From NCBI GenBank assembly GCA_021795235.1, contig JAJYPP010000014.1, forward strand, positions 28,650 through 60,649: a DNA stretch of 32,000 nucleotides, given 5' to 3'. The DNA is from a bacterium (GTDB lineage: Bacteria > Chloroflexota > Dormibacteria > Aeolococcales > Bog-877). The translations under genes were made by a program, and so were the position numbers. The first letter of the stretch is position 1, and every line of letters starts with the position of its first letter. The notes below the pieces were generated by a model. It was not told the DNA's origin. It was given only the letters and a program-made list of their open reading frames with translations, and searched no databases. This document shows positions 16,404-29,292 of the stretch, piece after piece.

Positions 16404-16442
16404 TGGTACGGACCATCCTAGCACGACCACAGGCCTTGTCAA
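16404..16442 (-). promoter_or_regulatory. putative promoter of the orf60-ssb-tra-rep-xis operon with an overlapping GntR-type operator
   Basis: On the minus strand: TTGACA (16442-16437), a 16-nt spacer, then TAGGAT (20-16415). The palindrome TGGTCCGTACCA (16415-16404; plus-strand tggtacggacca) starts at the last base of the -10 element. Confidence 0.45.
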
Positions 16443-16556
16443 GGGGGTGCGCGAAATCTCGGCTCGAGGAGATCGGGGGCGGTCCTACCGGCCACTCGCG
16501 GCAGCGGCGCCGGGCGGCCAGAGGGCTCTGTCGCCGGCCTCAGCAGAGGGTTCGGG

Positions 16557-17342
16557 CTAGATGTGGAGCGGGATCCTGGGGAACACCAGCGTGGTCTGGT
16601 CCGCCGGCAGGTGGGTCTCGATCACCGCCACCACCAGATCGTCCTGCTTCATCACCCGGTAGAGCTGGAGCACCGGCACCCCATCCGGGATGGAGAGGAC
16701 CTGCTTGATGTTGGGTGTCGGCATGGCGGCCTCCACCACGTCCTCCCCCTCCGCGGCCGGCACCCCCTTGATGGCGAGCACATCGGGGAGCCAGTAGCCG
16801 TCGAGGTCCTCCTCGGACAGCCCCATCTCCTTCTCCACTCTTGGGTGAAGCCAAACCCGGCAGAGAGACGGAGCTCCCTGGGAGTCGAGGCCCGTCGCCT
16901 CCTGCACCAGGACCTCGGTCCCGCCCTCAACCTGGAGCAGCTCCGAGATCCAGGGAGTCGTCGTCATCCGCCGCTCCAGACTCTCCAGGATCGCCGAGAG
17001 ACGGAAGGACCGAGTCGGGGCCCCGTCCTTGGACTCCTGCCTACGCGGAGCGGGGCGCACCATGCCCACCCGGGTCGCGTCCACCCGGTGCCGGTCCGCC
17101 TTGGGATCCCGCACGAAGCTTCCCGCCCCGTGCTCGGCGACCACCATCCCCTCCTGCTTCAGGACCCCGATGGCGCTCCGGACCGTCGTCCTGGTCACCT
17201 GGTAGCGGGCCATGAGCTTGCGTTCGGACGGGAACGCCACCCCGGCGGGCAGCCTCCCATCCTCGATGTCCTTGCGCAGGACATCGGCCAGCTGCTGGTA
17301 CAGCGGCACCGGGCTCTCACGGTCAAGGGTCGGTCTCACCAC
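16557..17342 (-). CDS. GntR-family (HutC-type, KorSA-like) transcriptional repressor
   Basis: PLYQQLADVLRKDIEDGRLPAGVAFPSERKLMARYQVTRTTVRSAIGVLKQEGMVVAEHGAGSFV is a GntR winged HTH. The C-terminal ~170 aa are UTRA-like. GTG start. Confidence 0.85.
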   Translation of the reverse strand: MVRPTLDRESPVPLYQQLADVLRKDIEDGRLPAGVAFPSERKLMARYQVTRTTVRSAIGVLKQEGMVVAEHGAGSFVRDPKADRHRVDATRVGMVRPAPRRQESKDGAPTRSFRLSAILESLERRMTTTPWISELLQVEGGTEVLVQEATGLDSQGAPSLCRVWLHPRVEKEMGLSEEDLDGYWLPDVLAIKGVPAAEGEDVVEAAMPTPNIKQVLSIPDGVPVLQLYRVMKQDDLVVAVIETHLPADQTTLVFPRIPLHI

Positions 17343-17348
17343 TGCTAC

Positions 17349-17369
17349 AGTCTACCTGGTGCGGACCAG
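17349..17369 (-). promoter_or_regulatory. putative autoregulatory operator plus -10 element of the GntR gene (leaderless-type arrangement)
   Basis: Palindrome ctggtgcggaccag lies at 17356-17369 (core TGGT-N4-ACCA at 17357-17368). It is directly upstream of TAGACT (minus strand, 17354-17349), which ends 6 nt before the GTG start. Confidence 0.4.
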
Positions 17370-17545
17370 AATTGCTACCGTCCGGATACGGGGAGAAATC
17401 AGTGCGGAATCCCGACAAAGACCGTACGCCTCCAGATTCAACTTTCACTCCGCCGAGCCCATCATCGTCATGGGCAAGCTCCACCTCAGGGTCTCTGTCC
17501 CTCTCCGGGTTCGCTCATGGCCCACTCAAACAGCAGTACCGCCGG

Positions 17546-17595
17546 AGAACTCTCGTGCGGAGTTTGGACAGCAGTTCCCCTGCCGACCCAGTCAT
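17546..17595 (-). pseudogene. remnant of the first ~16 codons of a second TrkA_N-RyR gene copy
   Basis: ATG 17595 gives MTGSAGELLSKLRTRV, compared with MTRSAGELLSKLRTRV at 24263. Homology stops at 17546 and the frame terminates after 26 codons. Confidence 0.6.
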
Positions 17596-17657
17596 CCCTG
17601 TGCCCCCTTCTGCCAGTTGGCACCAGCGCAGTGTCTCGACCAGTGCGGCTGAGTTCG

Positions 17658-20600
17658 CTAGCCATTCCTCTTAGCCACCACCGTAGCCAGGGCGTCCTGC
17701 ACACCGCCAATGAGAGGATGGCCCGGGGGCAGCGCCTGACTGTATATCTCCAGCGCCTCACGGAACAGCCCCTCCGCCTCGTCGAGGCGCCCCTGTCGCG
17801 CGGCCGAAATGGCCAGGTTGCAGAGCGAGGCGGCATTGTCCGGATGGCCAGGGGGCAGCGACTGGCGGCGCATCGCCTGCGCCTCCCGTTGCAGCCCCTC
17901 CGCTTCCTCGTAGCGACCGTGGGCCCTGACCACAACGGCCAGGCTGCTGAGTGAGGTCGCGATGTCCGGATGTCCCGGGGGCAGCGCCTGGCGGCGTATC
18001 TCCAGCGCCTCACGAAGCAGCCCCTCCGCTTCCTCGTAGCGCCCCTGGGCCCTGACCACAATCGCCAGGTTGCTGAGCGAGGCGGCGATGTCCGGATGGG
18101 CCGCCGGCAGCGCATTGCGGACCATCACCAACGCCTCCCGGTACAGCCCCTCCGCTTCCTCGTAGCGCCCCTGGGCAAAGACCGCCTGTGCCAGGTTGTT
18201 GAGCGAGGCGGCGATGGCCGGATGGCTCGGAGGCAGCGCCTGACGGTATGTCTCCAGCGCCTCACGAAGCAGTCCCTCCGCTTCCTCGTAGCGACCCTGG
18301 ACCCTGACCACAATCGCCAGGCTGTTGAGCGAGTTCGCGATGTCCGGATGGCCCGGGGGCAGCGCCTGACGGAGTATCTCCAGCGCCTCCCGGTGCAGCC
18401 CCTCCGCTTCCTCGTAGCGCCCCTGGGCCCTGACCACAACGGCCAAGTTGTTGAGCGAGTTCGCGATGGCCGGATGGCCCTGAGGCAGCGCCAGGCGGCT
18501 TATCTCCAGCGACTCCCGGTGCAGCCCCTCCGCTTCCTCGTAGCGCCCCTGGGCAAAGACCGCCTGTGCCAGGTTGCTGAGCGAGGCGGCGATGTCTGGA
18601 TGGCCCGGGGGCAGCGCCTGGCGAAGTATCTCCAGCGCCTCCCGGTTCAGCCCCTCCGCTTCATCGTGGCGCCCCTGGGCCTGGACCACGCCGGCCAAGT
18701 TGTTGAGCGAGACGGCGATGGCCGGATGCGCCGCCGGCAGCGCCTGGCGGCTTATCTCCAGCGCCTCCCGGTGCAGCCCCTCCGCTTCCTCGTTGCGGCC
18801 CTGGGCAAAGACCGCCTTTGCCAGGTTGTTGAGTGAGTTCGCGATGGCCGGATGGCCCGCCGGCAGGGCCTCGCGGCGAATCTCCAGCGCCTCCCGGTTC
18901 AGCCCCTCCGCTTCCTGGTAGCGCCCCTGGGCCCGGACCACAGTGGCCAGGTTGCTGACCGAGGTGGCGATGTCTGGATGGCCCGGGGGCCGCGCCTTGC
19001 GGAATATCTCCAGCGCCTCCCGGTGCAGCCCCTCCGCTTCCTCGTAGCGCCCCTGGACAAAGACCACACCAGCCAGGTTGTCGAGCGAGGCGCCGTTGAC
19101 CGGATGGCCCGGGGGCAGCGCCTCGCGGCGTATCTCCAGCGCCTCCCGGTGCAGCCCCTTCGCTTCGTCGTAGCGCCCCTGGGCAGAGACCGCCTGTGCC
19201 AGGTTGTTGAGCGAGACGGCGATGGCCGGATGGCCCGGTGGCAGAGCCTGGCGGCCTATCTCCAGCGCCTCCCGGTGCAACCCCTCCGCTTCGCCGTAGC
19301 GCCCCTGGGCCTGGACCACATTGGCCAGGTCGTTGAGCGAGGTGGCGATGGCCGGATGGCCCGCAGGCAGATGGAAGCGGGCCCACACCAGGTTCGCCTC
19401 CGCCCAGGCGCCAGCGAGGGGAAGGAAGCTCATCTGACGCAACAAGCTGCTGACAGCGCTGACGCCTCCGAGCGATCCCCAGTCCACATCGGCTGCGCCC
19501 CACTGGCTCGCTAGCCGCTGGAGGTCCTCTGACACCTCTGCCCGGCCGGCGCCCAGCACCCCCAGCGCCAGCGTCAGGACCCCGGGGTCGCTCGTGGCCA
19601 GCGCCGCGACATGAGCTGGGGCGGCCAGATCAGCCAGAATCCCCTGATGGTCCTCAAGTCGGGCCCGCTGATAGACGCGCTCAGTCAGACTGCGGTCATC
19701 TTCCCCGTCGAAGTAGTCGATGAGGCGGCGTCGCGTGCGTGCTTCCTGGCCTGCCGGGAGGGCGCCGGCGCCAAGGGCAGCGTGCATCAGCGCCTGCATC
19801 CCTGCGTTGCGCAACAGGTACGGCGCCATCCATGTGAGAAGAGGCCGGAGCACGGGGTCCGCCACCCGGGGCCGGTGACTCGCGGGATCGATGGGGTCCG
19901 TCTCGTGGGCCATCAACTCGGCCAGCTCGCGATCCTCAAGCCCCCGGTAGCTGGCCGCCAGAAGGCCAGCCAGCTCTTGGGCCGGATGGCTGTGGTCGGC
20001 GTTGGGAAAGTCAGCGGCAAAGTCCTCGTCCAACTCTCGCAGCAGCGCTTCGAACAGGCGCGCCGGAGTCGGCCGCTGGAGCCGCTCGCGAAGCCTGAGC
20101 GGCAGGTCTTGATGGGTGGCGTGCACCCGCAGGTCCTCCAGCACCAGACGCAGGTACAGCGGGTTCGCGCATGCGGGATTGCCTGTCAGCTCCCCGACCA
20201 GCTCCTTCGGCAGGGCGTGGCGGTAGCTCTTGGTCACCTCCACGATGATCCGCTCCCTTTCCTTCGCCGTGGGTTGGCGGAGCTCCAGCGTCTCGAACAG
20301 CACCAAGCGGCTGCCTCGCTCGTCGGCCAGAGTCGCCACCAGTTGCACCCCCGGGGGCCAGACCAGCGCTCCCAGACGATCGAGGGCACCCGGGGGATCA
20401 ATGAGTTGATCCACCCCGTCGAGCATCAGCACAATCCCCGTGCTCAGCTTGGCCGTGGCCGCGGTGAGCTCGGACGCGAACCACTCCCACGGGTCTGTCG
20501 AGCCCGGGGGTTCTGTCTCCGTCCCCAGGTGCTCGAGCACCCGCACCCGCCAGCTCTCCAGACCGCGCTCCCCATCGGCGCCCACGAAGTGGGTGATGAC

Positions 20601-21488
20601 CGTGGCCCCGAGCTCGTCGCGTGCGCGGCCCGCAACGTGGGCGAGGAGGCTGCTCTTGCCGAGCCCAGAGGCCCCCGTGACCAGGATCGGACCCGGGGCC
20701 TCACCCGCCAGGTGAGCACGCAGCCGGCCAAGCAGCCCGTCCTCAAAGTCCACCAGCGGCAGGTAGCCCTCGAGGCGCACTGCCGCGAAGTGGTCGTGAG
20801 CAGCGTCCCGACGCTGGCGGAGATCCGGCACCTCACTTTGAGGGAACCGCAGATCGATCGCCTTCTCCAGCTCCACCCCCAGCCGATCGCCAAGCTCCGG
20901 CAACGACCGGTACCCGTCCAGGATCACCCGGCCGCTATCGCGCAGCTCCTGCTTCAAGGCTTGGAGCTTGACCGAGGGGCCATCGCGGAACTCGCCCTCA
21001 TCAGCGGCGCGGGCCTGCTGCAACTCCTCGGTCAGCGCCGGGTCGCGCAGGAAGAAGTAAGCGTGCTCGCGCATTTGGGGCGCCTCCAGCACCCCGAAGC
21101 GCATTTCCAGCTCGGTGACGCTCTCCCCCTGGTCAAGCGCCCTAGCGATACGCTCCCCGTAGGCCGAGTCGTGCCGCCTCTCCCAGTAGGCCGCGACGTC
21201 CTCTCGCCTCGGCACCCAGCCATACCGCTCCCCCAGGATGCCCACAAAGAAGGGCGGATGCTCCCGGCAGCGCTCAATCTCCTCCAAGCACACCTCGACG
21301 GTCCGCCCGTTCTTGGCGTCCTCTTCCTCGATCCCCCACCTCAGGTCGATCTCCACGAAGGCCACGCCGCGCTCTCGACAGTGCGCCCTCAGCGCCGGGA
21401 AGACATGGGTCAACAGCCAGCTGCGCTCGTCCTCCATGTCGCGAAACGTCGACGACACAAACACCCGCACCTCGCGCTCCGTACTCAT
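17658..21488 (-). CDS. STAND/NLR-like ATPase, copy 1: DUF4062-like N-domain, P-loop NTPase (NACHT/NB-ARC-like) and 13 x 42-aa TPR
   Basis: Same length (1276 aa) as copy 2, and residues 1-583 are identical to it. The start is placed at MSTEREVRVF (ATG 21488, ATGA overlap with the upstream ORF) rather than the track start 21647. Walker A is GASGLGKS and Walker B is IVLMLDGVD. The TPR units resemble GHPDIAxSLNNLAxVVxAQGRYEEAEGLxREALEIxRQALPP. Confidence 0.85.
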   Translation of the reverse strand: MSTEREVRVFVSSTFRDMEDERSWLLTHVFPALRAHCRERGVAFVEIDLRWGIEEEDAKNGRTVEVCLEEIERCREHPPFFVGILGERYGWVPRREDVAAYWERRHDSAYGERIARALDQGESVTELEMRFGVLEAPQMREHAYFFLRDPALTEELQQARAADEGEFRDGPSVKLQALKQELRDSGRVILDGYRSLPELGDRLGVELEKAIDLRFPQSEVPDLRQRRDAAHDHFAAVRLEGYLPLVDFEDGLLGRLRAHLAGEAPGPILVTGASGLGKSSLLAHVAGRARDELGATVITHFVGADGERGLESWRVRVLEHLGTETEPPGSTDPWEWFASELTAATAKLSTGIVLMLDGVDQLIDPPGALDRLGALVWPPGVQLVATLADERGSRLVLFETLELRQPTAKERERIIVEVTKSYRHALPKELVGELTGNPACANPLYLRLVLEDLRVHATHQDLPLRLRERLQRPTPARLFEALLRELDEDFAADFPNADHSHPAQELAGLLAASYRGLEDRELAELMAHETDPIDPASHRPRVADPVLRPLLTWMAPYLLRNAGMQALMHAALGAGALPAGQEARTRRRLIDYFDGEDDRSLTERVYQRARLEDHQGILADLAAPAHVAALATSDPGVLTLALGVLGAGRAEVSEDLQRLASQWGAADVDWGSLGGVSAVSSLLRQMSFLPLAGAWAEANLVWARFHLPAGHPAIATSLNDLANVVQAQGRYGEAEGLHREALEIGRQALPPGHPAIAVSLNNLAQAVSAQGRYDEAKGLHREALEIRREALPPGHPVNGASLDNLAGVVFVQGRYEEAEGLHREALEIFRKARPPGHPDIATSVSNLATVVRAQGRYQEAEGLNREALEIRREALPAGHPAIANSLNNLAKAVFAQGRNEEAEGLHREALEISRQALPAAHPAIAVSLNNLAGVVQAQGRHDEAEGLNREALEILRQALPPGHPDIAASLSNLAQAVFAQGRYEEAEGLHRESLEISRLALPQGHPAIANSLNNLAVVVRAQGRYEEAEGLHREALEILRQALPPGHPDIANSLNSLAIVVRVQGRYEEAEGLLREALETYRQALPPSHPAIAASLNNLAQAVFAQGRYEEAEGLYREALVMVRNALPAAHPDIAASLSNLAIVVRAQGRYEEAEGLLREALEIRRQALPPGHPDIATSLSSLAVVVRAHGRYEEAEGLQREAQAMRRQSLPPGHPDNAASLCNLAISAARQGRLDEAEGLFREALEIYSQALPPGHPLIGGVQDALATVVAKRNG
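17661..19364. repeat. 126-bp tandem coding repeat array (13 TPR units plus a C-terminal cap) of NLR copy 1
   Basis: A 42-codon periodicity is visible in the protein. All frames on both strands stay open across the array. Confidence 0.9.
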
Positions 21489-21859
21489 GGTTCCTCCACC
21501 ACCCGATAGGTCTTGCTGAAGACGCCGCTTCCGACGACCCCGACATCGCCGGGGGCGTACTGAACCAGCCAGTCCCCCGCCTGTCCGACTAGCACCCCAC
21601 CGGACGGCAATTCGACGCTGATCGGCGCCTGCTCCGCCGAGATGCACACAGCCCAGATCGTTTCAGCGCGCGCGACGTACCGCCCGTCATCTCCCCAGTT
21701 CGTGCCGACAACCGGCCGATATCGCGCCGCGAAGACTGCCCGCTCGACCGGCCAGTGCTCCCCTTCCACCCCGGTCAGGATCGCGTCCCCCGCAACGTAG
21801 GGGAACCAGCCCCTCCCGGGTGGCCACGGTCCCTGCTGCCCTGGCGAAGGTGGCCTCCA
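21485..21859 (-). pseudogene. PGDYG-like small gene, copy 1: 5'-truncated and frameshifted
   Basis: Matches 28153-28526. It has a 4-G run (21800-21803) where copy 2 has 3 G (28468-28470). This splits ...EATFARAAGTVATREGLVP and YVAGDAILTGVEGEHWPVER... into different frames. Homology, and hence the N-terminus and promoter, ends at 21859. Confidence 0.65.
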
Positions 21860-21879
21860 GAGAACTGGACATGAGGGGG

Positions 21880-22418
21880 TCAAGCGGCGCGTTCCGAATG
21901 GTGCACCGCCACCTGATAGGTGACGGGGAGATCGGTCCCCGGGTAGGCGGGGTGGAGCTGGATGAGGTCAGCGCAGGGGCCGCGTAGAGCTCCGCGGTGC
22001 AGGGGGAGTCGGGCGGATCGAGGCTTAGGGTCATCCCCTCAGCAGTGGTGCGGATCTCGCCCGACAGCTCGGCGAAGGACCGCGGCATCTGGCGGACGTC
22101 GTCAGCACTCTGGTAGTGCGGCGCCAGCCGCTCCAGCAGCCACTCCGCGGCGATGTAGGCGGTGAGCTTGACCCGGTCCAGGATCGCCTTCTGCTGCAGC
22201 TTCGTCACGTCGTGATGGCCCACGGTCTCGAGGGGAACGTGACTGGGCAGGCGATGGCACTGCTCAAGTAGCCGGGCCAACTCCGTCTCCAGTTCCCGGA
22301 TCTTCTTCACCCCACTCCCGTGGGCGGACTTGAGGCCGCGAGCGCTGTGGGAGGAGTCCCGGCGCTCATCCAAGCGCGCCTGTCCCAGCTCCGCCCATCG
22401 GCTCACTTCGCTATCCAA
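21880..22418 (-). pseudogene. C-terminal remnant of a transposase-like gene (frameshifted)
   Basis: ...KLTAYIAAEWLLERLAPHYQSADDVRQMPRSFAELSGEIRTTAEGMTLSLDPPDSP continues in another frame as RGALRGPCADLIQLHPAYPGTDLPVTYQVAVHHSERAA-stop (TGA at 21882-21880). This resembles, from memory only, the C-terminus of a protein family usually annotated as transposase in high-GC Gram-positives. No N-terminal or DDE part is present. Confidence 0.45.
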
Positions 22419-22457
22419 TGGTCCGGCCTCGGCACCACCCGTACCTTGCTCGTTCCC

Positions 22458-24263
22458 TCACCTCAAGATCTGGCCGGGAGCATCGGGCACATGACAGACG
22501 TACCCAGCCCTACTCAACTGGTGCGGCCACGCCCTCACAATGTCCCGATTCTTTTCCTTTCCAAGCTCACTCAGAGCGCTCCATTCCACCAAGTCCGGAT
22601 GAAGACGTGCGGCTTCATCGCGGACCTCTCCAAAGCGCCACCCTTGGCGCTTCTTCTGCACAGTCCACCGCTCATGTTCCACCCGCGCCAGTTGCTCAAC
22701 GAACTCCGGCCACATGTCAGCGCCAATACTACTGTCCCCTGGTCGCACCCGAGCCACGCGATAACCAGCGCCCGCAAGCGAGCTGAATATCGAGTAGGCT
22801 TGCTCGCGGTTCGTCTCCTTCAGCCCTAGGTCCAACTCCTCCCACGGTTTGTGACTGGGCTTCTCGGGATCCAGCCTCCCCAACCTCCGTGCCTCATCAT
22901 CCAGAAAGTCCCCGTGAACCTGAATAGCAAGGCGCTCGAACAACGTTCCGCCCATCACATGTGCATACTCACATGCTCGTGCCTCAGCATCGACAAGAAC
23001 TACGCCGAACGTCTGGAGGGCCTGCCCCTGATCGGCGCTCCCGGATGTGCACACCACCTTGAGCCCCTTGAATTCGCGTTGCTCCGCAAGTGCCAGCGCC
23101 ATCGAAAGACCGGCGTCTCCCGTCATGTCGCACGCGACAATGCCGTCCGGCGCATCGGCATCCGAGCCAACCGCCCACTTGACGCGCGCATCGACTTCGG
23201 TGTCCGGGACGTCCGCCGCGCATGGCATGACCGTCACCAGCTCCGGATCGAGGTCGCGCTTCACCTTCTCAGCGAAGTCCGCGGCACCCATGCCGCCTAC
23301 GCGCAGGTCCAGGTGGGATGGTCCGCCAACGCTTGAGGTGGTCGTCGCCATCCATCGTCCCAGATCGCGCACGACTTGAGTCGCAAGCGGACCGGTTCCA
23401 ATGAGAGCGACTTTATATCTTGTAATCTTTGCGAGCCCCTCCGTGACTGTTTGCACTACCTGTTGTGCAGCAACTTCACCTGGTGAAAAGGCGTCCACGT
23501 GCACGGCGGCCGAGTCCTTCTGTCGACTCCGTGCATACACGGCCCGCAGGCGGTCGCAAGCCTCAGGGTCGGGCATCCTCGCGATGACGACCCGCGGAGT
23601 CCGACGTACGCCCCCGGTCTGGGGAACGGCTGCATGAAGCGCCGAAACGATAGCCAAGTTGGTCGCGGCAGTGCCAGTCAGGCAGAACAGCTTCGCGGCC
23701 TGCCCGATCCCCGCCTGCTTCAGCACCAATGGATCTCGGGCGTCCGACAAGATGACCGGAATGCCAAGTGTGCGAGCTGCCGTCACTCCCGCTGCGAAAG
23801 GATTCATCTCGACAGCCACAACAGCGGTATGGGGCGGCGCGGTCTGAACAAGCCGGATACCAACACTCCCCAGCCCACAGACCACAATGTGCCCCCGGTA
23901 CGTCGCGATGCGGGCGCGGTCATACGTTCGTCGGAAGGCAATAGTGAGCAGTCCAATTACGGTTGTGCCCGTGACGACCACCGCCACCAGTCGGGCCAAC
24001 TGAAGTTCCCACGACAATGCTCCAGGCGGCTTCTGGTAGTCGAAGACAAACAGGGATACCGCGTCATACACAGCCGAGGGGACACTCACTCCTTGTGCCC
24101 AGTACCCAAATGAACCCAGGGTGAAAGCAGACCCGGCCGATAAAAGGAGTGCGAACGGCCACCACGGCTGTGCGGCAGTTGACGCGCGGCGTCTGAGGTA
24201 CCTCACGTGGGGCAGAACTCTCGTGCGGAGTTTGGACAGCAGTTCACCCGCCGACCTAGTCAT
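22458..24263 (-). CDS. 2TM membrane protein with a TrkA_N/RCK NAD-binding domain, a second Rossmann-like domain and C-terminal RyR repeats
   Basis: 601 aa. TM1 is WWPFALLLSAGSAFTLGSFGYW. A pore-helix-like segment SAVYDAVSLFVFDY has no TVGYG filter. TM2 is LARLVAVVVTGTTVIGLLTIAF. Glycine loop is HIVVCGLGSVGIRLV, with a second one at KVALIGTGPLATQVV. RyR-type repeats are ...KPWEELDLGLKETNREQAYSIFSSLAGAGY and EHERWTVQKKRQGWRFGEVRDEAARLHPDLVEWSALSELGKEKNRDIV. Confidence 0.8.
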   Translation of the reverse strand: MTRSAGELLSKLRTRVLPHVRYLRRRASTAAQPWWPFALLLSAGSAFTLGSFGYWAQGVSVPSAVYDAVSLFVFDYQKPPGALSWELQLARLVAVVVTGTTVIGLLTIAFRRTYDRARIATYRGHIVVCGLGSVGIRLVQTAPPHTAVVAVEMNPFAAGVTAARTLGIPVILSDARDPLVLKQAGIGQAAKLFCLTGTAATNLAIVSALHAAVPQTGGVRRTPRVVIARMPDPEACDRLRAVYARSRQKDSAAVHVDAFSPGEVAAQQVVQTVTEGLAKITRYKVALIGTGPLATQVVRDLGRWMATTTSSVGGPSHLDLRVGGMGAADFAEKVKRDLDPELVTVMPCAADVPDTEVDARVKWAVGSDADAPDGIVACDMTGDAGLSMALALAEQREFKGLKVVCTSGSADQGQALQTFGVVLVDAEARACEYAHVMGGTLFERLAIQVHGDFLDDEARRLGRLDPEKPSHKPWEELDLGLKETNREQAYSIFSSLAGAGYRVARVRPGDSSIGADMWPEFVEQLARVEHERWTVQKKRQGWRFGEVRDEAARLHPDLVEWSALSELGKEKNRDIVRAWPHQLSRAGYVCHVPDAPGQILR

Positions 24264-24325
24264 CCCTGTGCCCCCCTCTGCCAGGTGGCACCAGCACAGT
24301 GTCTCGACCAGTGTGTCCCAGTTCG

Positions 24326-27300
24326 CTAGCCATTCCTCTTAGCCACCACCATAGCCAGGTAGTCCTGCGCGCTGGCGATGAGAGGATGGCCCGGGGGCAG
24401 CGCCTGACGGTATATCGCCAACGCTTCCCGGTACAGCCCCTCCGCTTCGTCGTAGCGCCCCTGATCCGAGACCACACTGGCCAGGTTGCTGACCGACATC
24501 GCGATGAGAGGATGGCCCGGGGGCAGCGCCTGGCGGCGCATGTCCAGCGCCTCCCGGTATAGCCCCTCCGCTTCGTCGTATCGCCCCTGAGCCGAGACCA
24601 CAATCGCCAGGTTGCTGACCGACGTGGCAATGTCCGGATGGCCCGGGGGCAGCGCCTGGCGGCTTATCTCCAGCGCCTCCCGAAGCAGCCCCTCCGCTTC
24701 GTCGTAGCGCCCTTGGGCAAGCACCGAATCTGCCAGGTTGTTGAGCGAGGCGGCGATGGCCCGATGGCCCGGGGGCAGCGCCTCGCGGCGCATCTCCAGC
24801 GCCTCCCGGTGTAGCCCCTCCGCCTCGTCGTTGCGCCCCTGGGCAAAGACCGCCTCTGCCAGGTTGTTGAGCGAGTTCGCGATGTCCGGATGGCCCGGGG
24901 GCAGCGCCTGGCGGCGCATGTCCAGCGCCTCCCGGTACAGCCCCTCCACTTCGCCGTAGCGCCCCTGGGCCTGGACCACATTGGCCAGGTTGCTGACCGA
25001 GGTGGCGATGTCCGGATGGCCCGGGGGCAGCGCCTGGCGGCGCATCTCCAGCGCATCCATGAGCAGCCCCTCCGCTTCCTCGTAGCGACCCTGGGCAAAG
25101 ACCGCCTGTGCCAGGTTGTTGAGCGAGACGGCAATGTCCGGATGGCCCGCCGGCAGCGCCTGGCGGCGTACAGCCAGCGCCTCCCGTTGCAGCCCCTCCG
25201 CTTCCTCGTAGCGACCCTGATCCGAGAACACACCGCCCAGGTTGCTGAGCGAGACGGCAATGTCCGGATGGCCCGCCGGCAGAGCCTGGCGATATATCTC
25301 CAGCGCCTCCTTGTACAGCCCCTCCGCTTCGTCGTAGCGCCCCTGATGCGAGAACACACCGCCCAGGTTGCTGACCGACTTCGCAATGTCCGGATGGCCC
25401 GGGGGCAGCGCCTTGCGGAATATCTCCAGCGCCTCCCGTTGCAGCCCCTCCGCTTCCTCGTAGCGACCCTGGGCAAAGACCGCCTGTGCCAGGTTGTTGA
25501 GCGAGTTCGCGATGTCCGGATGTCCCGGGGGCAGCGCCTGACGGCGCATCTCCAGCGCATCCATGAGCAGCCCCTCCGCTTCGCCGTAGCGCCCCTGGGC
25601 GAAGACCACAGTGGCCAGGTTGCTGACCGAGGCGGCAATGTCCGGATGGCCCAGGTGCAGAGCCTGGCGATATATCTCCAGCGCCTCCCGGCGCAGCCCC
25701 TCCGCTTCGCCGTAGCGACCCTGATCCGAGACCACACCGGCCAGGTTGCTGACCGAGGCGGCGATGGCCGGATGGCCCGCCGGCAGCGCCTGGCGGAGCA
25801 TCTCCAGCGCCTCCTTGTACAGCCTCTCCGCCTCCTCGTAGCGACCCTGGGCCCTGACCACATTGGCCAGGTTGCTGAGCGAGGTGGCGATGTCCGGATG
25901 GCCCGCCGGCAGCGCCTGGCGGCGTACAGCCAGCGCCTCCCGTTGCAGCCCCTCCGCTTCCTCGTAGCGACCCTGGGCAAAGACCGCCTGTGCCAGGTTG
26001 TTGAGCGAGTTCGCGATGTCCGGATGTCCCGGGGGCAGGTGGAAGCGGGCCCATGCCAGGTTCGCCTCCGCCCAGGCACCGGCGAGGGGAAGGAAGCTCA
26101 TCCCATACAACAAGCTGCTGACAGCGCTGACGCCGCCGAGCGATCCCCAGTCCACATCGGCTTCGCCCCAGTGGCTTGCAAGCTGCTGGAGGTCCTCTGA
26201 CACCTCTGCCCGGCCGGCGCCCAGCACCCCCAGCGCCTGCGTCAGGACCCCGGGGTCGCTCGTGGCCAGCGCGGCGACATGAGCTGGGGCGGCCAGATCA
26301 GCCACAATCCCCTGGTGGTCCTCAAGTCGGGCCCGCTGATAGAGGCGCTCAGTCAGGCCACGGTCATCTTCCCCGTCGAAGTAGTCGATGAGGTGGCGTC
26401 GCGTGGGTGCTTCCTGGCCTGCCGGGAGGGCGCCGGCGCCAAGGGCAGCGTGCATCAGCGCCTGCATCCCTGCGTTGCGCAACAGGTACGGCGCCATCCA
26501 TGTGAGAAGAGGCCGGAGCACGGGGTCCGCCACCCGGGGCCGGTGACTCGCGGGATCGATGGGGTCCGTCTCGTGGGCCATCAACTCGGCCAGCTCGCGA
26601 TCCTCAAGCCCCCGGTAGCTGGCCGCCAGAAGGCCAGCCAGCTCTTGGGCCGGATGGCTGTGGTCGGCGTTGGGAAAGTCAGCGGCAAAGTCCTCGTCCA
26701 ACTCTCGCAGCAGCGCTTCGAACAGGCGCGCCGGAGTCGGCCGCTGGAGCCGCTCGCGAAGCCTGAGCGGCAGGTCTTGATGGGTGGCGTGCACCCGCAG
26801 GTCCTCCAGCACCAGACGCAGGTACAGCGGGTTCGCGCATGCGGGATTGCCTGTCAGCTCCCCGACCAGCTCCTTCGGCAGGGCGTGGCGGTAGCTCTTG
26901 GTCACCTCCACGATGATCCGCTCCCTTTCCTTCGCCGTGGGTTGGCGGAGCTCCAGCGTCTCGAACAGCACCAAGCGGCTGCCTCGCTCGTCGGCCAGAG
27001 TCGCCACCAGTTGCACCCCCGGGGGCCAGACCAGCGCTCCCAGACGATCGAGGGCACCCGGGGGATCAATGAGTTGATCCACCCCGTCGAGCATCAGCAC
27101 AATCCCCGTGCTCAGCTTGGCCGTGGCCGCGGTGAGCTCGGACGCGAACCACTCCCACGGGTCTGTCGAGCCCGGGGGTTCTGTCTCCGTCCCCAGGTGC
27201 TCGAGCACCCGCACCCGCCAGCTCTCCAGACCGCGCTCCCCATCGGCGCCCACGAAGTGGGTGATGACCGTGGCCCCGAGCTCGTCGCGTGCGCGGCCCG

Positions 27301-28156
27301 CAACGTGGGCGAGGAGGCTGCTCTTGCCGAGCCCAGAGGCCCCCGTGACCAGGATCGGACCCGGGGCCTCACCCGCCAGGTGAGCACGCAGCCGGCCAAG
27401 CAGCCCGTCCTCAAAGTCCACCAGCGGCAGGTAGCCCTCGAGGCGCACTGCCGCGAAGTGGTCGTGAGCAGCGTCCCGACGCTGGCGGAGATCCGGCACC
27501 TCACTTTGAGGGAACCGCAGATCGATCGCCTTCTCCAGCTCCACCCCCAGCCGATCGCCAAGCTCCGGCAACGACCGGTACCCGTCCAGGATCACCCGGC
27601 CGCTATCGCGCAGCTCCTGCTTCAAGGCTTGGAGCTTGACCGAGGGGCCATCGCGGAACTCGCCCTCATCAGCGGCGCGGGCCTGCTGCAACTCCTCGGT
27701 CAGCGCCGGGTCGCGCAGGAAGAAGTAAGCGTGCTCGCGCATTTGGGGCGCCTCCAGCACCCCGAAGCGCATTTCCAGCTCGGTGACGCTCTCCCCCTGG
27801 TCAAGCGCCCTAGCGATACGCTCCCCGTAGGCCGAGTCGTGCCGCCTCTCCCAGTAGGCCGCGACGTCCTCTCGCCTCGGCACCCAGCCATACCGCTCCC
27901 CCAGGATGCCCACAAAGAAGGGCGGATGCTCCCGGCAGCGCTCAATCTCCTCCAAGCACACCTCGACGGTCCGCCCGTTCTTGGCGTCCTCTTCCTCGAT
28001 CCCCCACCTCAGGTCGATCTCCACGAAGGCCACGCCGCGCTCTCGACAGTGCGCCCTCAGCGCCGGGAAGACATGGGTCAACAGCCAGCTGCGCTCGTCC
28101 TCCATGTCGCGAAACGTCGACGACACAAACACCCGCACCTCGCGCTCCGTACTCAT
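24326..28156 (-). CDS. STAND/NLR-like ATPase, copy 2: DUF4062-like N-domain, P-loop NTPase (NACHT/NB-ARC-like) and 13 x 42-aa TPR
   Basis: 1276 aa. N-terminus reads VRVFVSSTFRDMEDERSWLLTHVFPALR...FFVGILGERYGWVP (DUF4062-like). Walker A GASGLGKS is encoded at 27320-27343. Walker B is IVLMLDGVD. A helical linker follows, then the TPR array from about aa 709. The ATG overlaps the stop of the upstream small gene. Confidence 0.9.
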   Translation of the reverse strand: MSTEREVRVFVSSTFRDMEDERSWLLTHVFPALRAHCRERGVAFVEIDLRWGIEEEDAKNGRTVEVCLEEIERCREHPPFFVGILGERYGWVPRREDVAAYWERRHDSAYGERIARALDQGESVTELEMRFGVLEAPQMREHAYFFLRDPALTEELQQARAADEGEFRDGPSVKLQALKQELRDSGRVILDGYRSLPELGDRLGVELEKAIDLRFPQSEVPDLRQRRDAAHDHFAAVRLEGYLPLVDFEDGLLGRLRAHLAGEAPGPILVTGASGLGKSSLLAHVAGRARDELGATVITHFVGADGERGLESWRVRVLEHLGTETEPPGSTDPWEWFASELTAATAKLSTGIVLMLDGVDQLIDPPGALDRLGALVWPPGVQLVATLADERGSRLVLFETLELRQPTAKERERIIVEVTKSYRHALPKELVGELTGNPACANPLYLRLVLEDLRVHATHQDLPLRLRERLQRPTPARLFEALLRELDEDFAADFPNADHSHPAQELAGLLAASYRGLEDRELAELMAHETDPIDPASHRPRVADPVLRPLLTWMAPYLLRNAGMQALMHAALGAGALPAGQEAPTRRHLIDYFDGEDDRGLTERLYQRARLEDHQGIVADLAAPAHVAALATSDPGVLTQALGVLGAGRAEVSEDLQQLASHWGEADVDWGSLGGVSAVSSLLYGMSFLPLAGAWAEANLAWARFHLPPGHPDIANSLNNLAQAVFAQGRYEEAEGLQREALAVRRQALPAGHPDIATSLSNLANVVRAQGRYEEAERLYKEALEMLRQALPAGHPAIAASVSNLAGVVSDQGRYGEAEGLRREALEIYRQALHLGHPDIAASVSNLATVVFAQGRYGEAEGLLMDALEMRRQALPPGHPDIANSLNNLAQAVFAQGRYEEAEGLQREALEIFRKALPPGHPDIAKSVSNLGGVFSHQGRYDEAEGLYKEALEIYRQALPAGHPDIAVSLSNLGGVFSDQGRYEEAEGLQREALAVRRQALPAGHPDIAVSLNNLAQAVFAQGRYEEAEGLLMDALEMRRQALPPGHPDIATSVSNLANVVQAQGRYGEVEGLYREALDMRRQALPPGHPDIANSLNNLAEAVFAQGRNDEAEGLHREALEMRREALPPGHRAIAASLNNLADSVLAQGRYDEAEGLLREALEISRQALPPGHPDIATSVSNLAIVVSAQGRYDEAEGLYREALDMRRQALPPGHPLIAMSVSNLASVVSDQGRYDEAEGLYREALAIYRQALPPGHPLIASAQDYLAMVVAKRNG
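24329..26032. repeat. 126-bp tandem coding repeat array (13 TPR units plus a cap) of NLR copy 2
   Basis: 42-aa periodicity. Internal duplicated blocks are present: EAEGLLMDALEMRRQALPPGHPDIA occurs twice and EAEGLQREALAVRRQALPAGHPDIA occurs twice. Confidence 0.9.
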
Positions 28157-28602
28157 GGTTCCTCCACCACCCGATAGGTCTTGCTGAAGACGCCGCTTCC
28201 GACGACCCCGACATCGCCGGGGGCGTACTGAACCAGCCAGTCCCCCGCCTGTCCGACTAGCACCCCACCGGACGGCAATTCGACGCTGATCGGCGCCTGC
28301 TCCGCCGAGATGCGCACAGCCCAGATCGTTTCAGCGCGCGCGACGTACCGGCCGTCATCTCCCCAGTTCGTGCCGACAACCGGCTGATATCGCGCCCCAA
28401 AGGCTGCCCGCTCGACGGGCCAGTGCTCCCCCTCCACCCCGGTCAGGATCGCGTCCCCCGCGACGTAGGGAACCAGCCCCTCCCGGGTGGCCACGGTCCC
28501 TGCTGCCCTGGCGAAGGTGGCCTCCACCGGCAGACCCCGCTTGCGCACACGCACGGCCCCCGGCTGCTGCGCTAGGTCCGACCCGGGATCAAAGCTGTTC
28601 AC
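28153..28602 (-). CDS. small PGDYG-like protein (intact copy), first gene of the NLR cassette
   Basis: ...RKRGLPVEATFARAAGTVATREGLVPYVAGDAILTGVEGEHWPVERAAFGARYQPV...LVGQAGDWLVQYAPGDVGVVGSGVFSKTYRVV matches my recollection of the PGDYG family (Pfam PF14083) of bacteria and phages. The GTG 28602 start is uncertain and internal GTGs are possible. The stop overlaps the NLR ATG. Confidence 0.6.
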   Translation of the reverse strand: MNSFDPGSDLAQQPGAVRVRKRGLPVEATFARAAGTVATREGLVPYVAGDAILTGVEGEHWPVERAAFGARYQPVVGTNWGDDGRYVARAETIWAVRISAEQAPISVELPSGGVLVGQAGDWLVQYAPGDVGVVGSGVFSKTYRVVEEP

Positions 28603-28623
28603 GGCTGTTCACGGCTGTTCACG
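28594..28623. repeat. three perfect tandem copies of a 10-bp unit (gctgttcacg) at the 5' end of the cassette
   Basis: Copies at 28594-28603, 28604-28613 and 28614-28623. On the coding strand the unit reads CGTGAACAGC x3. The last copy supplies the GTG used as the ORF start. Confidence 0.9.
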
Positions 28624-29292
28624 CCCCCTGCCGGAGTTGGACCCACTTCAGCAGGCCCATGTGTGTCCCTGATCTGGCCTCTCCCGTCCAACCCTGCACT
28701 CGCGCCGATGGCTGGCAAACTCATGACGACGAATCGCGGAGCGGAGCCGTCCGCAGCGCCCAGGGACACATCCAGTAGCCCCGGCGACAGATGATAGGCG
28801 GTCAGGACGGCGTGCGCCCCCAGGCCACTGCCAGCTGTGACGCCGCAGAAGATCTCCGATTGACACAACCAAGGCCCTGGATCTCATTGGCGGCGACTGC
28901 CCACCACAAGGCTGGACCGCCTTGTCACCGGACTTCTGGAGCCGCACTTGGACCGTGTATCTCTTGCCAGAGACAACGGCCGTCAGATAAGGGGGCGGAA
29001 GGTGGGCCAGGCTGGTGCTGGTTGCCAACCCCTTGAAGTAGCAACTGTCGAAGGCGGGCGCCGGAGCGGACGCGGGGAAGGTGACCAGCATCGTGCTCGA
29101 CCGCCACGATGGTCGTCCTCGCACTTGGGACGTCGAGATGCCGGACCCACCAAATGCGGCGGCATCGACTTCGTGGCAGCCCCTCGCGAGGCCATGGGCC
29201 GATCCTCATCTGCAGAAGGCGGGTGTGCATTGTCATCATGGACTTACACTCTCTGCCTTCCTCAGGGTCTCGATCGGTTGGGGAGATTGACA

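Follow-up and report, generated by a model that had tools for sequence, protein, structure and literature searches.

Mosaic duplication of a DUF4062-STAND-TPR gene in an integrative element of a Dormibacteria genome

The 32,000-nt stretch of DNA analyzed here (the window) carries two copies of an NLR-like gene, and we confirmed that the two copies are a real duplication. The explanation that best fits the locus as a whole, and which we consider somewhat probable, is that a piece of an operon was copied by template switching, that gene conversion and diversification of the TPR arrays followed, and that two sensors resulted. The locus is a clear bacterial example of known processes and not a new kind of system; the duplication is ordinary genome evolution.

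Pairwise blastn aligned the two repeats, R1 and R2, as one HSP (92.06% identity, 4319 columns, E = 0) and returned the same boundaries as the preliminary description of this DNA. The features in and around the repeats are as follows.

16557 to 17342, minus strand: GntR/UTRA regulator, the left flank of R1 (Pfam GntR 65.2 bits, UTRA 34.3 bits)
17546 to 17595, minus strand: 5′ stub of the RyR gene, MTGSAGELLSKLRTRV(L) followed by 9 unrelated codons and a stop, 26 codons in total
17546 to 21859, minus strand: repeat R1 (blastn HSP), the putative derived copy, cut short at both ends, with its edges inside RyR codon 16/17 and PGDYG codon 26
17658 to 21488, minus strand: NLR1, DUF4062(NIR)-STAND NTPase-TPR (13 units of 42 aa), 1276 aa, intact (Pfam DUF4062 and TPR_10; Walker A and B)
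21485 to 21859, minus strand: PGDYG1 remnant, without native codons 1 to 25 and with a +1 frameshift (an added G) at ~21803
21880 to 22451, minus strand: Transposase_29 relic, the last ~165 to 200 codons, with a frameshift near 22005 and the native stop at ~21881
22458 to 24263, minus strand: TrkA_N-RyR gene, 601 aa, with a hydrophobic N-terminal region, TrkA_N/RCK (126-242), and an RyR R12-type repeat (520-588)
24214 to 28526, minus strand: repeat R2, the putative parental copy in its native context, where the RyR gene at the left edge and the PGDYG gene at the right edge both continue to full length
24326 to 28156, minus strand: NLR2, 1276 aa, with the architecture of NLR1
28153 to 28602, minus strand: PGDYG2, complete, 149 aa (Pfam PGDYG 66.2 bits), its stop overlapping the NLR2 start (ATGA)

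The exact 6668-bp offset that had been reported between the repeats holds for 98.7% of their length: the register is ungapped from 17546 to 21802, but one extra G in R1 at ~21803 moves the last 56 bp (56/56 identical) to an offset of 6667. The equal lengths of the NLR genes were borne out, both ORFs having 1276 codons (21488 to 17658 and 28156 to 24326). So was the unique 2.35-kb spacer (21860 to 24213) with its TrkA_N-RyR gene and transposase relic, on which Pfam, phmmer, and tblastn agree. The left end of each repeat does contain the start of the RyR gene (47/50 nt of the stub are identical to 24214 to 24263), and only the copy that begins with MTRSAGELLSKLRTRV(L) at 24263 continues, into the 601-aa gene.

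Three features go beyond the preliminary description: the mosaic identity of the repeats, the position of the right repeat edge inside PGDYG, and the frameshift in the R1 copy of that gene. Homologues of PGDYG (n = 52) are 126 to 175 aa long, mostly 141 to 152, and cover 70 to 100% of the 149 aa, usually 91 to 100%. The full length is thus kept in homologues, and the right repeat edge cuts inside the gene, at codon 26. In PGDYG1 the first ~43 native residues, corresponding to ~4 beta-strands of the first barrel, are gone (alignment; AF2 model with a pLDDT of 91.6). A fold search with PGDYG found no relative in the PDB. Since only R2 sits between complete genes (the 149-codon PGDYG gene and the full RyR gene), R2 is probably the parent, and R1 a copy that was cut short at each end.

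Both edges of R1 carry the same short motif.

17545 to 17551: junction J0, GAGAACT, one base from the flank and the 6 nt with which R1 begins
21860 to 21866: junction J1, GAGAACT, the 7 nt that open the spacer on its R1 side

The window holds only three copies of GAGAACT, at 10442, 17545, and 21860, and R2 starts with AGAACT at 24214. The starting state would have been a minus-strand operon, PGDYG followed by the DUF4062(NIR)-STAND-TPR NLR-like gene, the TM/TrkA_N/RyR gene, and then a dead transposase, all cargo of an integrative element. What was copied would be 4.3 kb of this operon, between PGDYG codon 26 and RyR codon 16/17, and the insertion would have taken place 2.35 kb downstream, ~21 nt beyond the stop of the transposase. 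A single replication template switch, primed on the hexamer AGAACT, would be the likeliest route, leaving GAGAACT on each side of the insert. The copy, R1, would have retained an intact NLR gene while its PGDYG and RyR neighbors were reduced to stubs.

The preliminary description had instead proposed an ancestral three-gene unit, PGDYG-NLR-RyR, with later deletion of the RyR gene next to the GntR gene. Spelled out, a 6.67-kb unit (21860 to 28526: relic end, RyR, NLR, and PGDYG from codon 26) would have been duplicated in tandem, and the left RyR gene and relic would then have been lost between two AGAACT hexamers. This model yields exactly the same final sequence as copy-insertion, with the hexamers at 21861 and 24214 as the deletion microhomology and J1 as the tandem junction, and RyR is a plausible member of the duplicated unit because NLR-RyR adjacency is kept elsewhere. 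PGDYG genes and RyR genes each recur beside DUF4062 genes in other loci, which lends comparative support to a linked PGDYG-NLR-RyR cassette; the repeat edges, at PGDYG codon 26 and RyR codon 16/17, do not match a three-gene unit. The deletion is not supported as stated, since it requires an endpoint within 1 nt of the duplication junction and is less parsimonious. Two events would be needed, precisely one whole spacer copy would have to go even though the spacer has a further AGAACT at 22996, and our genome and metagenome scans returned no intermediate. With one copy-insertion, a single target site accounts for both junctions, which makes this route the more parsimonious; we regard tandem duplication plus deletion as possible but unlikely, and one-step microhomology copy-insertion as the better fit. 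The same scans revealed no single-copy state, and the 31-mers of the predicted junction and repeat edge had 0 matches in metagenomes. With no single-copy genome found, the direction and number of events rest on parsimony.

The transposase relic aligns with seven PF21804 proteins over their last 165 to 200 residues, as far as the stop, at 41 to 63% identity. The assignment comes from phmmer, from Pfam PF21804 on the full-length matches, and from tblastn in two frames. A 243-codon ORF (22418 to 21687) is not a gene; it arises because the frame of the relic stays open into R1. We had considered the spacer ORF as an orphan gene (GC3 of 0.84, open frame), and Pfam, NCBIfam, PHROGs, PADLOC, and tblastn against plasmids gave no identification; the exhaustive phmmer search, with 122 matches, shows it to be the transposase relic. 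Residues 1 to ~550 of the transposase (its first ~560 codons) have no match anywhere in the window, so that a complete DDE catalytic region is lacking. The idea that the cassette split an insertion sequence was rejected because this 5′ part is absent from the window. We also set aside the tail of P0202, a 74%-identical relic, as proof of a former continuity between 17544 and 21860; P0202 has a frameshift of its own and so is uninformative. No homologue crosses the junction, since the spacer contains the entire native end of the transposase, stop included.

Identity between the repeats is a mosaic of three kinds of sequence.

17726 to 19363, minus strand: NLR1 TPR array, 13 units of 126 nt (TRF, 13.1 copies at 81%; unit matrix)
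19739 to 21645, minus strand: perfect block, 1907 bp, identical to 26407 to 28313, covering NLR codons 1 to 583 and the last ~53 PGDYG codons; a putative gene-conversion tract
24394 to 26031, minus strand: NLR2 TPR array, 13 units of 126 nt

The 1907-bp block has 0 mismatches, including at ~449 synonymous sites, versus 54/712 (7.6%) in the other non-array repeat DNA, which is thus 92.4% identical; in the NLR linker dS is 0.13. With a background divergence of 7.6%, the probability of a perfect run of 1907 bp is ~1e-65. Residues 1 to 583 of NLR1 are identical to those of NLR2, and the TPR array accounts for 153 of the 170 amino acid differences between the proteins. The mosaic pattern indicates that recent gene conversion and reshuffling of repeat units probably took place, with variation concentrated at a few codons. 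Some time after the copy was made, a 1.9-kb conversion tract would have made the NADase and NTPase halves identical again. The 100% identity of the block could be slightly overstated by bubble popping or by polishing of paralogues during assembly.

The contrast between flanks that are 6 to 11% diverged and a center at 0% would also be expected if R1 were a diverged allele of the cassette, captured from another strain or element, in which only the central 1.9 kb was homogenized later. Diverged PGDYG alleles do circulate and recombine: P0130, a full-length PGDYG on other metagenome contigs, has the R1-type V67, A69, and R73 plus seven private changes, and P0131 is the reciprocal combination. These mixtures of R1- and R2-type changes mean that R1 may have been copied from, or recombined with, another allele. 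However, the donor start is a hexamer common to the target in the same molecule, as in an intramolecular switch, and age plus conversion gives the same pattern without a second donor. Capture of a foreign allele is therefore very unlikely in our judgment, and an intramolecular copy remains the reading that we prefer.

One NLR locus might have been duplicated or misjoined, or two strain alleles stitched into one contig, by the assembler. Short reads cannot bridge the perfect 1.9-kb block, and short-read assemblies of the locus do fragment and misjoin: contig L002 joins NLR1 to NLR2 in a chimera with 8 units fewer, and PGDYG appears as several alleles on contigs of 845 to 1283 bp. J0 and the path from the NLR1 array to the GntR gene were seen only in the window's own contig; elsewhere, only the NLR1 linker and first TPR unit recur, in L002. 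Against an artifact, each copy has its own unique, ORF-preserving 1638-nt array and unique flanks. Another ENA contig, from a separate assembly (L001), matches the window from 26547 to 21505 at 100%, and so contains J1 and the full path from the R2 array through the spacer to R1; each of its ends lies exactly k = 141 nt within the perfect block, as for a true repeat. A further ENA contig encodes PGDYG1 with its junction-derived N terminus (P0129). Nor would the stitching of alleles create the microhomology signature at the R1 edges or the frameshift. Thus, an artifact is highly improbable.

In the TPR arrays, units are on average 82% identical at the nucleotide level and 72% identical (range, 55 to 90%) at the amino acid level. 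Nucleotide identity is 82% in and out of register: 0.821 between cognate units of the two genes, 0.817 between noncognate units, and 0.821 within a gene. Between noncognate units of the same gene, exact tracts reach 103 nt, compared to a maximum of 58 after columns were shuffled and of 29 for cognate units; in NLR2, units 1, 5, 7, and 8 have common exact tracts of 65 to 103 nt. Because cognate units are no more alike than noncognate units and the exact tracts exceed the shuffled maximum, units appear to have been exchanged, or shuffled. Both 13-unit arrays would have diversified in this way at the time that the conversion tract kept the other halves alike, by exchange among units and by amino acid change at a few surface positions, until the units of the two genes no longer corresponded one to one.

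Entropy within the unit peaks at positions 8, 15, 18, 30, and 37. Cognate units differ at 52/65 residues of the five most variable positions versus 40/364 residues of the 28 conserved positions. The dN/dS ratio is 2.5 at the variable codons and 0.21 at the rest, where the codon classes were chosen post hoc from the same data. The number of units is the same in both genes, 13 and 13, with no polymorphism between the copies (the 5-unit variant in L002 is a chimera). This equality counts against shuffling, of which a change in repeat number is the usual by-product.

Variation at a few codons, spread over all three codon positions, might also arise by targeted hypermutation of the kind produced by a diversity-generating retroelement, instead of by recombination and selection. 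Yet there is no reverse transcriptase among the window ORFs scanned, the changes are not adenine specific (the non-consensus fractions are 0.18 for A, 0.13 for C, 0.14 for T, and 0.08 for G), and the long exact tracts in noncognate units point to conversion. On these three grounds a mechanism of this type is effectively refuted, and we rejected it.

Both NLR proteins match DUF4062 (PF13271) at residues 8 to 95 with 52.5 bits (Pfam cutoff, 24.7) and TPR_10 with 476 to 503 bits in 13 stretches (476 bits in NLR1). Between these lie Walker A (GASGLGKS, 272-279, with G275 to S279) and Walker B (IVLMLDGVD, 352-360) motifs; the Pfam AAA_16 and NACHT matches are below threshold. Four glutamates, E87 (in GERYGW), E21, E70, and E128, are invariant in 9 to 12 homologues. 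Assigned by position rather than by alignment to E108 of PsAvs2 or E97 of KpSwz, E87 is the candidate catalytic Glu. An AF2 model of residues 1 to 322 (pLDDT of 81) has a beta-alpha-beta core. A Foldseek search of the PDB with this multidomain 322-residue query returned nothing at E < 0.01, nucleoside 2-deoxyribosyltransferase (NDT) matches only at E ~0.2, and no TIR-like fold. PADLOC likewise had no Avs model for the genes, only a generic TPR match (1e-25) and weak mad8 and PDC-S39 matches. The proteins are at most 49% identical to any relative found, and a scan for promoters and terminators gave nothing above expectation.

Experiments have established DUF4062/NIR as an NADase effector of the TIR-like type, also for an Avs2 protein with the DUF4062-STAND-TPR architecture (bioRxiv 10.64898/2026.09.04.749371; 10.64898/2026.05.01.722283). 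The function of this NADase STAND family was worked out only in 2026, and that part is known biology. The genes here are like PsAvs2 of Pseudomonas chlororaphis (10.64898/2026.09.04.749371), Swarozyc (10.64898/2026.05.01.722283), and Evangelion (10.64898/2026.06.25.731849) in their N-terminal DUF4062 with an invariant Glu, central P-loop STAND NTPase, C-terminal TPRs, and carriage on a mobile element. Unlike those systems, they have arrays of near-identical 42-aa units, an operon with PGDYG and TrkA_N-RyR, and two paralogues. The same logic of phage protein binding, oligomerization, and NAD+ depletion is expected here by analogy. Thus, as in characterized DUF4062 proteins, a ligand on the TPR array would lead to NTP-dependent oligomerization and NAD+ hydrolysis, and the infection would be aborted. 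The outcome of the duplication would be two sensors that recognize with different surfaces but signal and act through a common module. The pair is a natural swap experiment: the NADase and NTPase halves are identical and the sensor arrays unrelated, which means that any difference in specificity could be attributed solely to the TPR array.

Fungal NLRs with highly conserved repeats include the Podospora nwd/HET-e/HET-d family and NB-ARC-TPR genes, defined by an 85% amino acid criterion (Dyrka et al. 2014, PMC4986451), and bacterial NLRs with TPR or WD units that are 80 to 90% identical have been noted (Dyrka et al. 2020, bioRxiv 10.1101/2020.01.06.895854). The locus resembles the fungal genes in its few variable positions, apparent exchange of units within and between paralogues, and conserved effector/NOD beside a fast-changing sensor. 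Its units are near-identical in nucleotide terms, 82% being within the figure of ~80 to 85%, whereas their amino acid identity of 72% is below the 85% criterion, and their number is not polymorphic. The locus is also bacterial and on a mobile element, and the adjacent perfect tract, putatively made by conversion, serves as an internal clock. The perfect tract, the 7.6%-diverged flanks, and the scrambled arrays together are direct bacterial evidence for a repeat-reshuffling regime that was described from fungal genes and had been no more than a suggestion in bacteria until now.

The TrkA_N-RyR protein matches RyR (PF02026) with 57.2 bits (cutoff, 27.4) and TrkA_N with 51.8 bits in Pfam, its RyR domain matches animal RyR repeats at E ~1e-22, and its hydropathy peaks at 87 to 112. 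GC3 is 0.67 in this gene versus 0.83 in the NLR genes. A genome scan with the protein found no relatives, and its sole full-length relative among 5.8 billion proteins is 27% identical. Three homologues all keep H530, W533, and H555 of the RyR domain. For phage RyDEP, and for other proteins with an RyR (R12) domain, cADPR/ADPR is a ligand or a substrate for cleavage (PMC13232231), and H75, W78, and H100 of RyDEP are spaced like these three residues, a match by residue spacing and not to the RyDEP sequence. Where RyDEP has the catalytic D117, the protein here has Asn and its homologues at loci L028 and L029 have Asp. Unlike RyDEP, the protein is host encoded and fused to a hydrophobic N-terminal region and TrkA_N/RCK.

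Genes with RyR domains lie beside DUF4062-STAND genes in 9/80 loci from at least six phyla; those of the TrkA_N-RyR type are 49 nt (L028) and 552 nt (L029) away on the same strand. PGDYG overlaps the DUF4062 gene in L087 and L014 and is translationally coupled to DUF4062-STAND genes in three loci. This recurrence in other phyla hints at a multigene cassette. In the searchable DUF4062 literature, the PsAvs2, Swarozyc, and Evangelion papers (10.64898/2026.09.04.749371, 10.64898/2026.05.01.722283, 10.64898/2026.06.25.731849) mention neither PGDYG nor TrkA_N-RyR partners. The neighborhood, together with the binding of ADPR-type nucleotides by RyR domains, is a testable lead for a multigene version of DUF4062-STAND systems. 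A bolder idea, which we offer as speculation and think unlikely, is a single signaling defense system made up of PGDYG, the NIR-NLR, and the TrkA_N(RCK)-RyR protein in the membrane. RyR would read the NADase product (ADPR or a derivative) and gate or activate the membrane protein, and PGDYG, a two-barrel fold otherwise common in phages, would tune or bait the sensor. The duplication would then have supplied the single RyR partner with input from another sensor, one whose TPR surface is new. If true, this would account for a copy that could do without PGDYG and RyR, and it would make the host-side RyR domain a receptor of the ADPR type, the mirror of the phage RyDEP enzymes.

The whole duplicated region is cargo of an 18.3-kb element (~11682 to 29997) at a tRNA gene.

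11655 to 11730, plus strand: tRNA-Arg (CCT) (ARAGORN), whose 3′ 50 nt (11682 to 11731) are attL
11839 to 12945, plus strand: tyrosine integrase (Pfam Phage_integrase 104.5 bits, Phage_int_SAM_3)
14218 to 15585, minus strand: FtsK/SpoIIIE-type DNA translocase, the candidate transfer gene (Pfam FtsK_SpoIIIE 90 bits)
15824 to 16294, minus strand: SSB (Pfam 43.5 bits)
29948 to 29997, plus strand: attR, a 50/50 copy of the tRNA-Arg 3′ end (blastn-short)

The integrase is 108 nt from tRNA-Arg, and the FtsK-like protein is at most 30% identical to plasmid proteins. Sister MAGs have integrases of at least 90% identity at this chromosomal site, and their contigs break off right after the integrase and do not cover the cargo. 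Actinomycete ICEs of the pSAM2 type integrate at tRNA 3′ ends with att repeats, have a tyrosine integrase, a single FtsK/SpoIIIE-type translocase, and a GntR-type regulator, and are small. All of these traits are common to the element here, a candidate ICE. It differs from the pSAM2 type in that no replication gene was identifiable (ORF403 had no family match) and in that ~60% of its length is the duplicated NLR region.

A single blastn alignment paired positions 17546-21859 (R1) with 24214-28526 (R2), the limits given in the preliminary description, at 92.06% identity over 4,319 columns, and the duplication reported there is real. In the 6,668-bp register, identity stayed at background (~25 to 35%) up to 17545, jumped at 17546, and collapsed after ~21800. 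That offset had been called exact, and it does hold without a gap to 21802, but beyond this point R1 contains one additional G, and the final 56 bp match perfectly at an offset of 6,667 bp. All of the region's genes are on the minus strand, in the order PGDYG2, NLR2, the TrkA_N + RyR gene, the spacer remnant, the PGDYG1 remnant, NLR1, a RyR stub, and GntR. The main genes are as follows.

Genes of the repeat region
28602->28153, minus strand: PGDYG2, 149 aa, Pfam PGDYG at 66 bits
28156->24326, minus strand: NLR2, 1,276 codons
24263->22458, minus strand: gene for a TrkA_N + RyR protein, 601 aa
21488->17658, minus strand: NLR1, 1,276 codons

The two large open reading frames (ORFs) are thus equal in length, as had been noted, and because both are open over 1,276 codons, both NLR genes are maintained. 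Each encodes a DUF4062 domain (52.5 bits versus a cutoff of 24.7) and a P-loop NTPase (Walker A, GASGLGKS; Walker B, IVLMLDGVD); residues 709-1254 are made up of 13 TPR_10 units of 42 residues each. The PGDYG2 stop codon overlaps the NLR2 start in an ATGA, and the RyR gene follows NLR2 after 62 nt. The GC3 value of the RyR gene (22458-24263) is 0.67 versus 0.83 for the NLR genes, and the PGDYG, NLR, GntR, and FtsK genes span 0.81 to 0.90; this low value suggests that the RyR gene differs in origin from its operon partners or arrived later. On the operon's native promoter side, the 10-bp sequence TCA(A/C)(A/G)GCTGT is present three times in tandem at 28589-28623, over the annotated PGDYG2 start codon (28602-28600) and ~20 nt further upstream; these copies could be a candidate operator or iteron.

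The first 16 to 17 codons of the RyR gene are present at the left end of both repeats, and the gene continues only from 24263, just as described. The preliminary description took this to mean a three-gene repeat unit from which one RyR gene was later deleted. We instead regard R1 as a secondary copy that was truncated at both ends and probably arose in a single step. The right edge of R2 (28526) falls in PGDYG codon 26 and its left edge in RyR codon 16/17; because only R2 runs into complete genes on both sides, it would be the parental locus. PGDYG homologues are mostly 141 to 152 aa long and usually cover 91 to 100% of the 149-aa PGDYG2, so the full-length ORF is evidently the native gene. 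Neither PGDYG codons 1 to 25 nor the region upstream of them is present in R1, whose extra G causes a frameshift near codon 43. In the predicted PGDYG model (pLDDT, 91.6), which has two small beta-barrels, the residues lost in R1 make up ~4 strands of the first barrel.

The sequence GAGAACT occurs three times in the 32 kb (10442, 17545, and 21860), and the latter two occurrences exactly bracket R1; AGAACT at 24214 is the start of R2. This arrangement implies that the sequence before duplication read ...17544|21860..., and the ancestral single-copy state is predicted to contain the junction string ...ACCGCCGGAGAACTGGACATGAGG... In a one-step copy-insertion, a nascent strand would have left the target after GAGAACT, reannealed on AGAACT at 24214, copied to 28526, and returned 7 nt upstream of its exit point. 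The same product would be obtained by the route implied in the preliminary description, a tandem duplication of 21860-28526 followed by a deletion in the left copy between AGAACT at 21861 and at 24214. That route requires two events, however, and the deletion must stop no more than 1 nt from the earlier junction, taking out exactly one copy of the spacer. Because of the additional event and the coincident endpoint, we consider copy-insertion the more probable route.

The transposase relic noted in the spacer (21860-24213) was borne out by phmmer and tblastn homology to Transposase_29. A 243-codon ORF in the spacer (22418->21687) has strong coding composition and gave no match in four profile libraries or plasmids. 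With an exhaustive phmmer search, 122 relatives were recovered; those of full length (700 to 820 aa) belong to Pfam Transposase_29 and have helix-turn-helix (HTH) domains plus a weak DDE domain. By tblastn the relic lies in two frames, from 22394 to ~22005 in one and from 22005 to 21883 in another, and the latter segment is 54 to 63% identical to the last 41 residues of the intact proteins, up to their stop. Judged by this homology, the relic is a genuine transposase remnant; its 5' part was found nowhere in the window by tblastn. The 243-codon ORF was rejected as a gene, being an artifact of the relic's frameshift and of read-through into R1, by chance in the old PGDYG frame. The right junction of R1 (21859/60) is ~21 nt past the native transposase stop, close to the expected end of the insertion sequence.

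Identity between the repeats is a mosaic.

Identity of R1 to R2 by segment (R1 coordinates)
17546-17657: downstream stub and intergenic sequence, 91%
17726-19363: TPR arrays, 82.2%
19364-19740: linker, 92.8%
19739-21645: perfect block, 1,907 bp, 0 mismatches
21646-21802: right part, 94%

When the arrays and the perfect block are set aside, the repeats differ at 54 of 712 positions (7.6%), a rate at which a run of 1,907 matches has a P of ~1e-65. None of the ~449 synonymous sites in the block is changed (a few single-nucleotide polymorphisms could be hidden by bubble-popping or polishing), and dS in the linker is 0.13; selection therefore cannot account for the block. The simplest reading of this pattern is a recent gene conversion tract over NLR codons 1 to 583 and the last ~53 PGDYG codons. 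This tract and the fully reshuffled sensor arrays are the more interesting features of the region.

Mean identity was 82.1% for cognate TPR units (those with the same index in NLR1 and NLR2), 81.7% for noncognate units, and 82.1% for units within one gene. For 12 of the 13 NLR1 units the best NLR2 partner was at a different index, and the arrays were 80 to 86% identical when slid past each other by any number of units. The positional orthology of the units has thus been erased; the caps flanking the arrays still align at ~90%. Noncognate units of the same gene have exact in-phase tracts of 103, 69, 65, 65, and 55 nt in common, compared to a mean of 44 nt and a maximum of 58 nt in column-shuffled controls and at most 29 nt in cognate units. 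The long tracts indicate that units are still undergoing conversion, mostly with others of the same gene.

Variability within the unit peaks at positions 8, 15, 18, 30, and 37, with smaller peaks at 1, 5, 11, and 24; the spacing of 8-11-15-18 and 30-37 would fit single faces of the two TPR helices. Cognate units differed at 52/65 sites at the five top positions versus 40/364 at the 28 conserved positions, and dN/dS was 2.5 at variable codons versus 0.21 elsewhere, with the codon classes picked from the same data. A diversity-generating retroelement was rejected: the variable sites are not biased toward adenine, and the window ORFs that were scanned included no reverse transcriptase. In fungal NLRs, high internal repeat conservation, reshuffling of units, and positive selection on the concave TPR face are established (PMC4986451); in bacterial NLRs, internally conserved repeats have been noted but not analyzed (bioRxiv 10.1101/2020.01.06.895854).

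For comparison we took 80 loci from species-representative genomes that contain DUF4062-STAND relatives. Tandem arrays with a period of 120 to 144 nt were present in ~35 of the 80, some more self-similar than the window's (15 units at 90% in L007, 13 at 85% in L018; L069 has three arrays). In 11 loci, two or more DUF4062-STAND genes lie within 15 kb; of these, only L069 had nucleotide-level similarity along whole paralogues (82 to 86%). In none of the 80 was a perfect N-terminal block seen beside a scrambled array. L069 (Treponema primitia ZAS-10, 1-11763) has three tandem DUF4062-STAND-TPR paralogues, each with a 126-nt array of 7 to 15 units, and is another good system for array turnover.

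DUF4062, renamed NIR, is a TIR-like NADase with a catalytic Glu (2026 preprints; 10.64898/2026.09.04.749371 and 10.64898/2026.05.01.722283). According to the 2026 preprints, it is the effector of the DUF4062-STAND-TPR Avs2, which depletes NAD+ upon sensing phage terminase, and also of the Swarozyc, Vulcan, Vesta, and Evangelion systems. The window NLRs share the three-part architecture of Avs2 and carry DUF4062 motifs that are conserved, among them GERYGW with its invariant E87, but their nearest relatives are only 43 to 49% identical, and a PADLOC scan gave no Avs match for the window proteins. On these sequence grounds we file them as new DUF4062-STAND-repeat members, not as Avs2. A fold search with the multi-domain N-terminal model gave no PDB hit at E < 0.01, with nucleoside 2-deoxyribosyltransferase hits only at E of ~0.2. 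By homology, ligand binding to the TPR array is predicted to lead to NTP-dependent oligomerization and then to NAD+ hydrolysis.

The gene neighborhood is the part most worth following up. Nine of the 80 loci, from several phyla, have RyR-domain genes next to DUF4062-STAND genes, a proximity not mentioned in the 2026 DUF4062 papers. The RyR loci are L028:1167-2876, L029:10942-12747, L048:10062-12503, L044, L046, L047, L061, L065, L078, L003 (a TrkA_N/RyR gene 6 kb away), and L089:1483-4236. The neighbors have at least three architectures: TM+TrkA_N+RyR, AAA/nSTAND+RyR, and TIR-NACHT-RyR, the last a fusion in L048. The window's TrkA_N + RyR layout recurs on the NLR strand in L028 (Draconibacterium, 49 nt from the NLR gene) and L029 (Phycisphaerales, 552 nt), and five loci encode sugar-kinase-like/AAA proteins with RyR repeats at their C-terminal end. 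RyR-domain proteins of phages were shown to bind cADPR/ADPR or to cleave it via H75, W78, H100, and D117 (PMC13232231, May 2026 preprint). The window protein has H530, W533, and H555 at equal spacing but Asn at the position expected for D117; in L028 and L029 the residue is Asp. A host RyR protein adjoining a predicted ADPR-producing NADase might plausibly be a receptor or partner, although we think this rather unlikely.

PGDYG genes overlap the start of a DUF4062 gene in L087 (2728-3165) and the end of one in L014 (10156-10581), and in L017 (12528-12974) one lies 1.9 kb away. In other contexts (the P0157 locus, L088, L089, and L090 among them), PGDYG precedes or overlaps a patatin gene or is near a 917-aa RyR protein. 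It is usually preceded by a gene for a large protein (438 to 701 aa) without a Pfam match; the window has no such gene. The predicted fold has no relative in the PDB; the model matches uncharacterized phage proteins (TM, 0.81; E = 1e-8), and the fold is common in phages.

The window's proteins are on a 61-kb NCBI contig. L001 (k141_170657, 5,043 bp), from a separate ENA assembly of possibly the same sample, equals window 26547->21505 at 100% and covers the right junction of R1 and the whole NLR2 array. Both of its ends are exactly 141 nt inside the perfect block, as expected of a k = 141 de Bruijn assembler at a true repeat. Another ENA contig encodes PGDYG1 with its junction-derived N terminus (P0129). 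The left junction of R1 (17545/6) is supported by the window's own contig only.

L002, a contig of a metagenome-assembled genome (GCA_027345705.1, DAHWGB010000146.1, 1-4035), is 100% NLR1-type for ~590 nt (linker and unit 1) and then, from inside a TPR unit, 100% NLR2-type from unit ~9 onward into RyR, which makes it 1,008 bp (8 units) shorter than the window. This dataset has both NLR paralogues. The chimera is most likely a short-read graph-path error; alternatively, it would be a true recombinant or a circular product. Two PGDYG alleles on ENA contigs of 845 to 891 bp (P0130 and P0131) mix R1-type and R2-type substitutions; all four combinations of two informative blocks exist, and P0130 has seven private changes in addition. 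Such mixed alleles imply that several cassette alleles circulate and recombine.

The region lies in an integrative element.

Features of the element's ends and surroundings
9821-10471 (minus strand) and 10513-11367 (plus strand): divergent ClpP-family genes, directly before tRNA-Arg
11655-11730: tRNA-Arg(CCT), the last 50 nt of which recur perfectly at 29948-29997
30707-31093 and 31587-32000: PIN-domain genes, just outside attR

Between the att repeats are genes for a tyrosine integrase, an FtsK/SpoIIIE translocase, SSB, and GntR, a 403-aa ORF without assignment, the duplicated region, and an LRV-repeat gene. The element spans 18.3 kb, of which the 10.98-kb duplicated region is 60%; from its gene content, 67% GC, and GC3 of 0.8 to 0.9, we infer that it is of actinomycete type. 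L005 (GCA_027402205.1) and L006 (GCA_027313505.1), sister metagenome-assembled genomes, have an integrase from the ≥90%-identity cluster of the window's, with Wzy_C, TrpRS, glycosyltransferase, LPG synthase, and isochorismatase neighbors (and ClpP in L005 only). Both contigs end inside the first genes of the element or just past them, so the cargo region appears generally hard to assemble. Outside the window's element are ClpP, polysaccharide, and TrpRS genes on the left and the PIN-domain genes on the right. The protein encoded at 10513-11367 (284 aa) has an N-terminal extension of ~120 aa, and the PIN-domain genes are probably toxin-antitoxin modules flanking the integration site.
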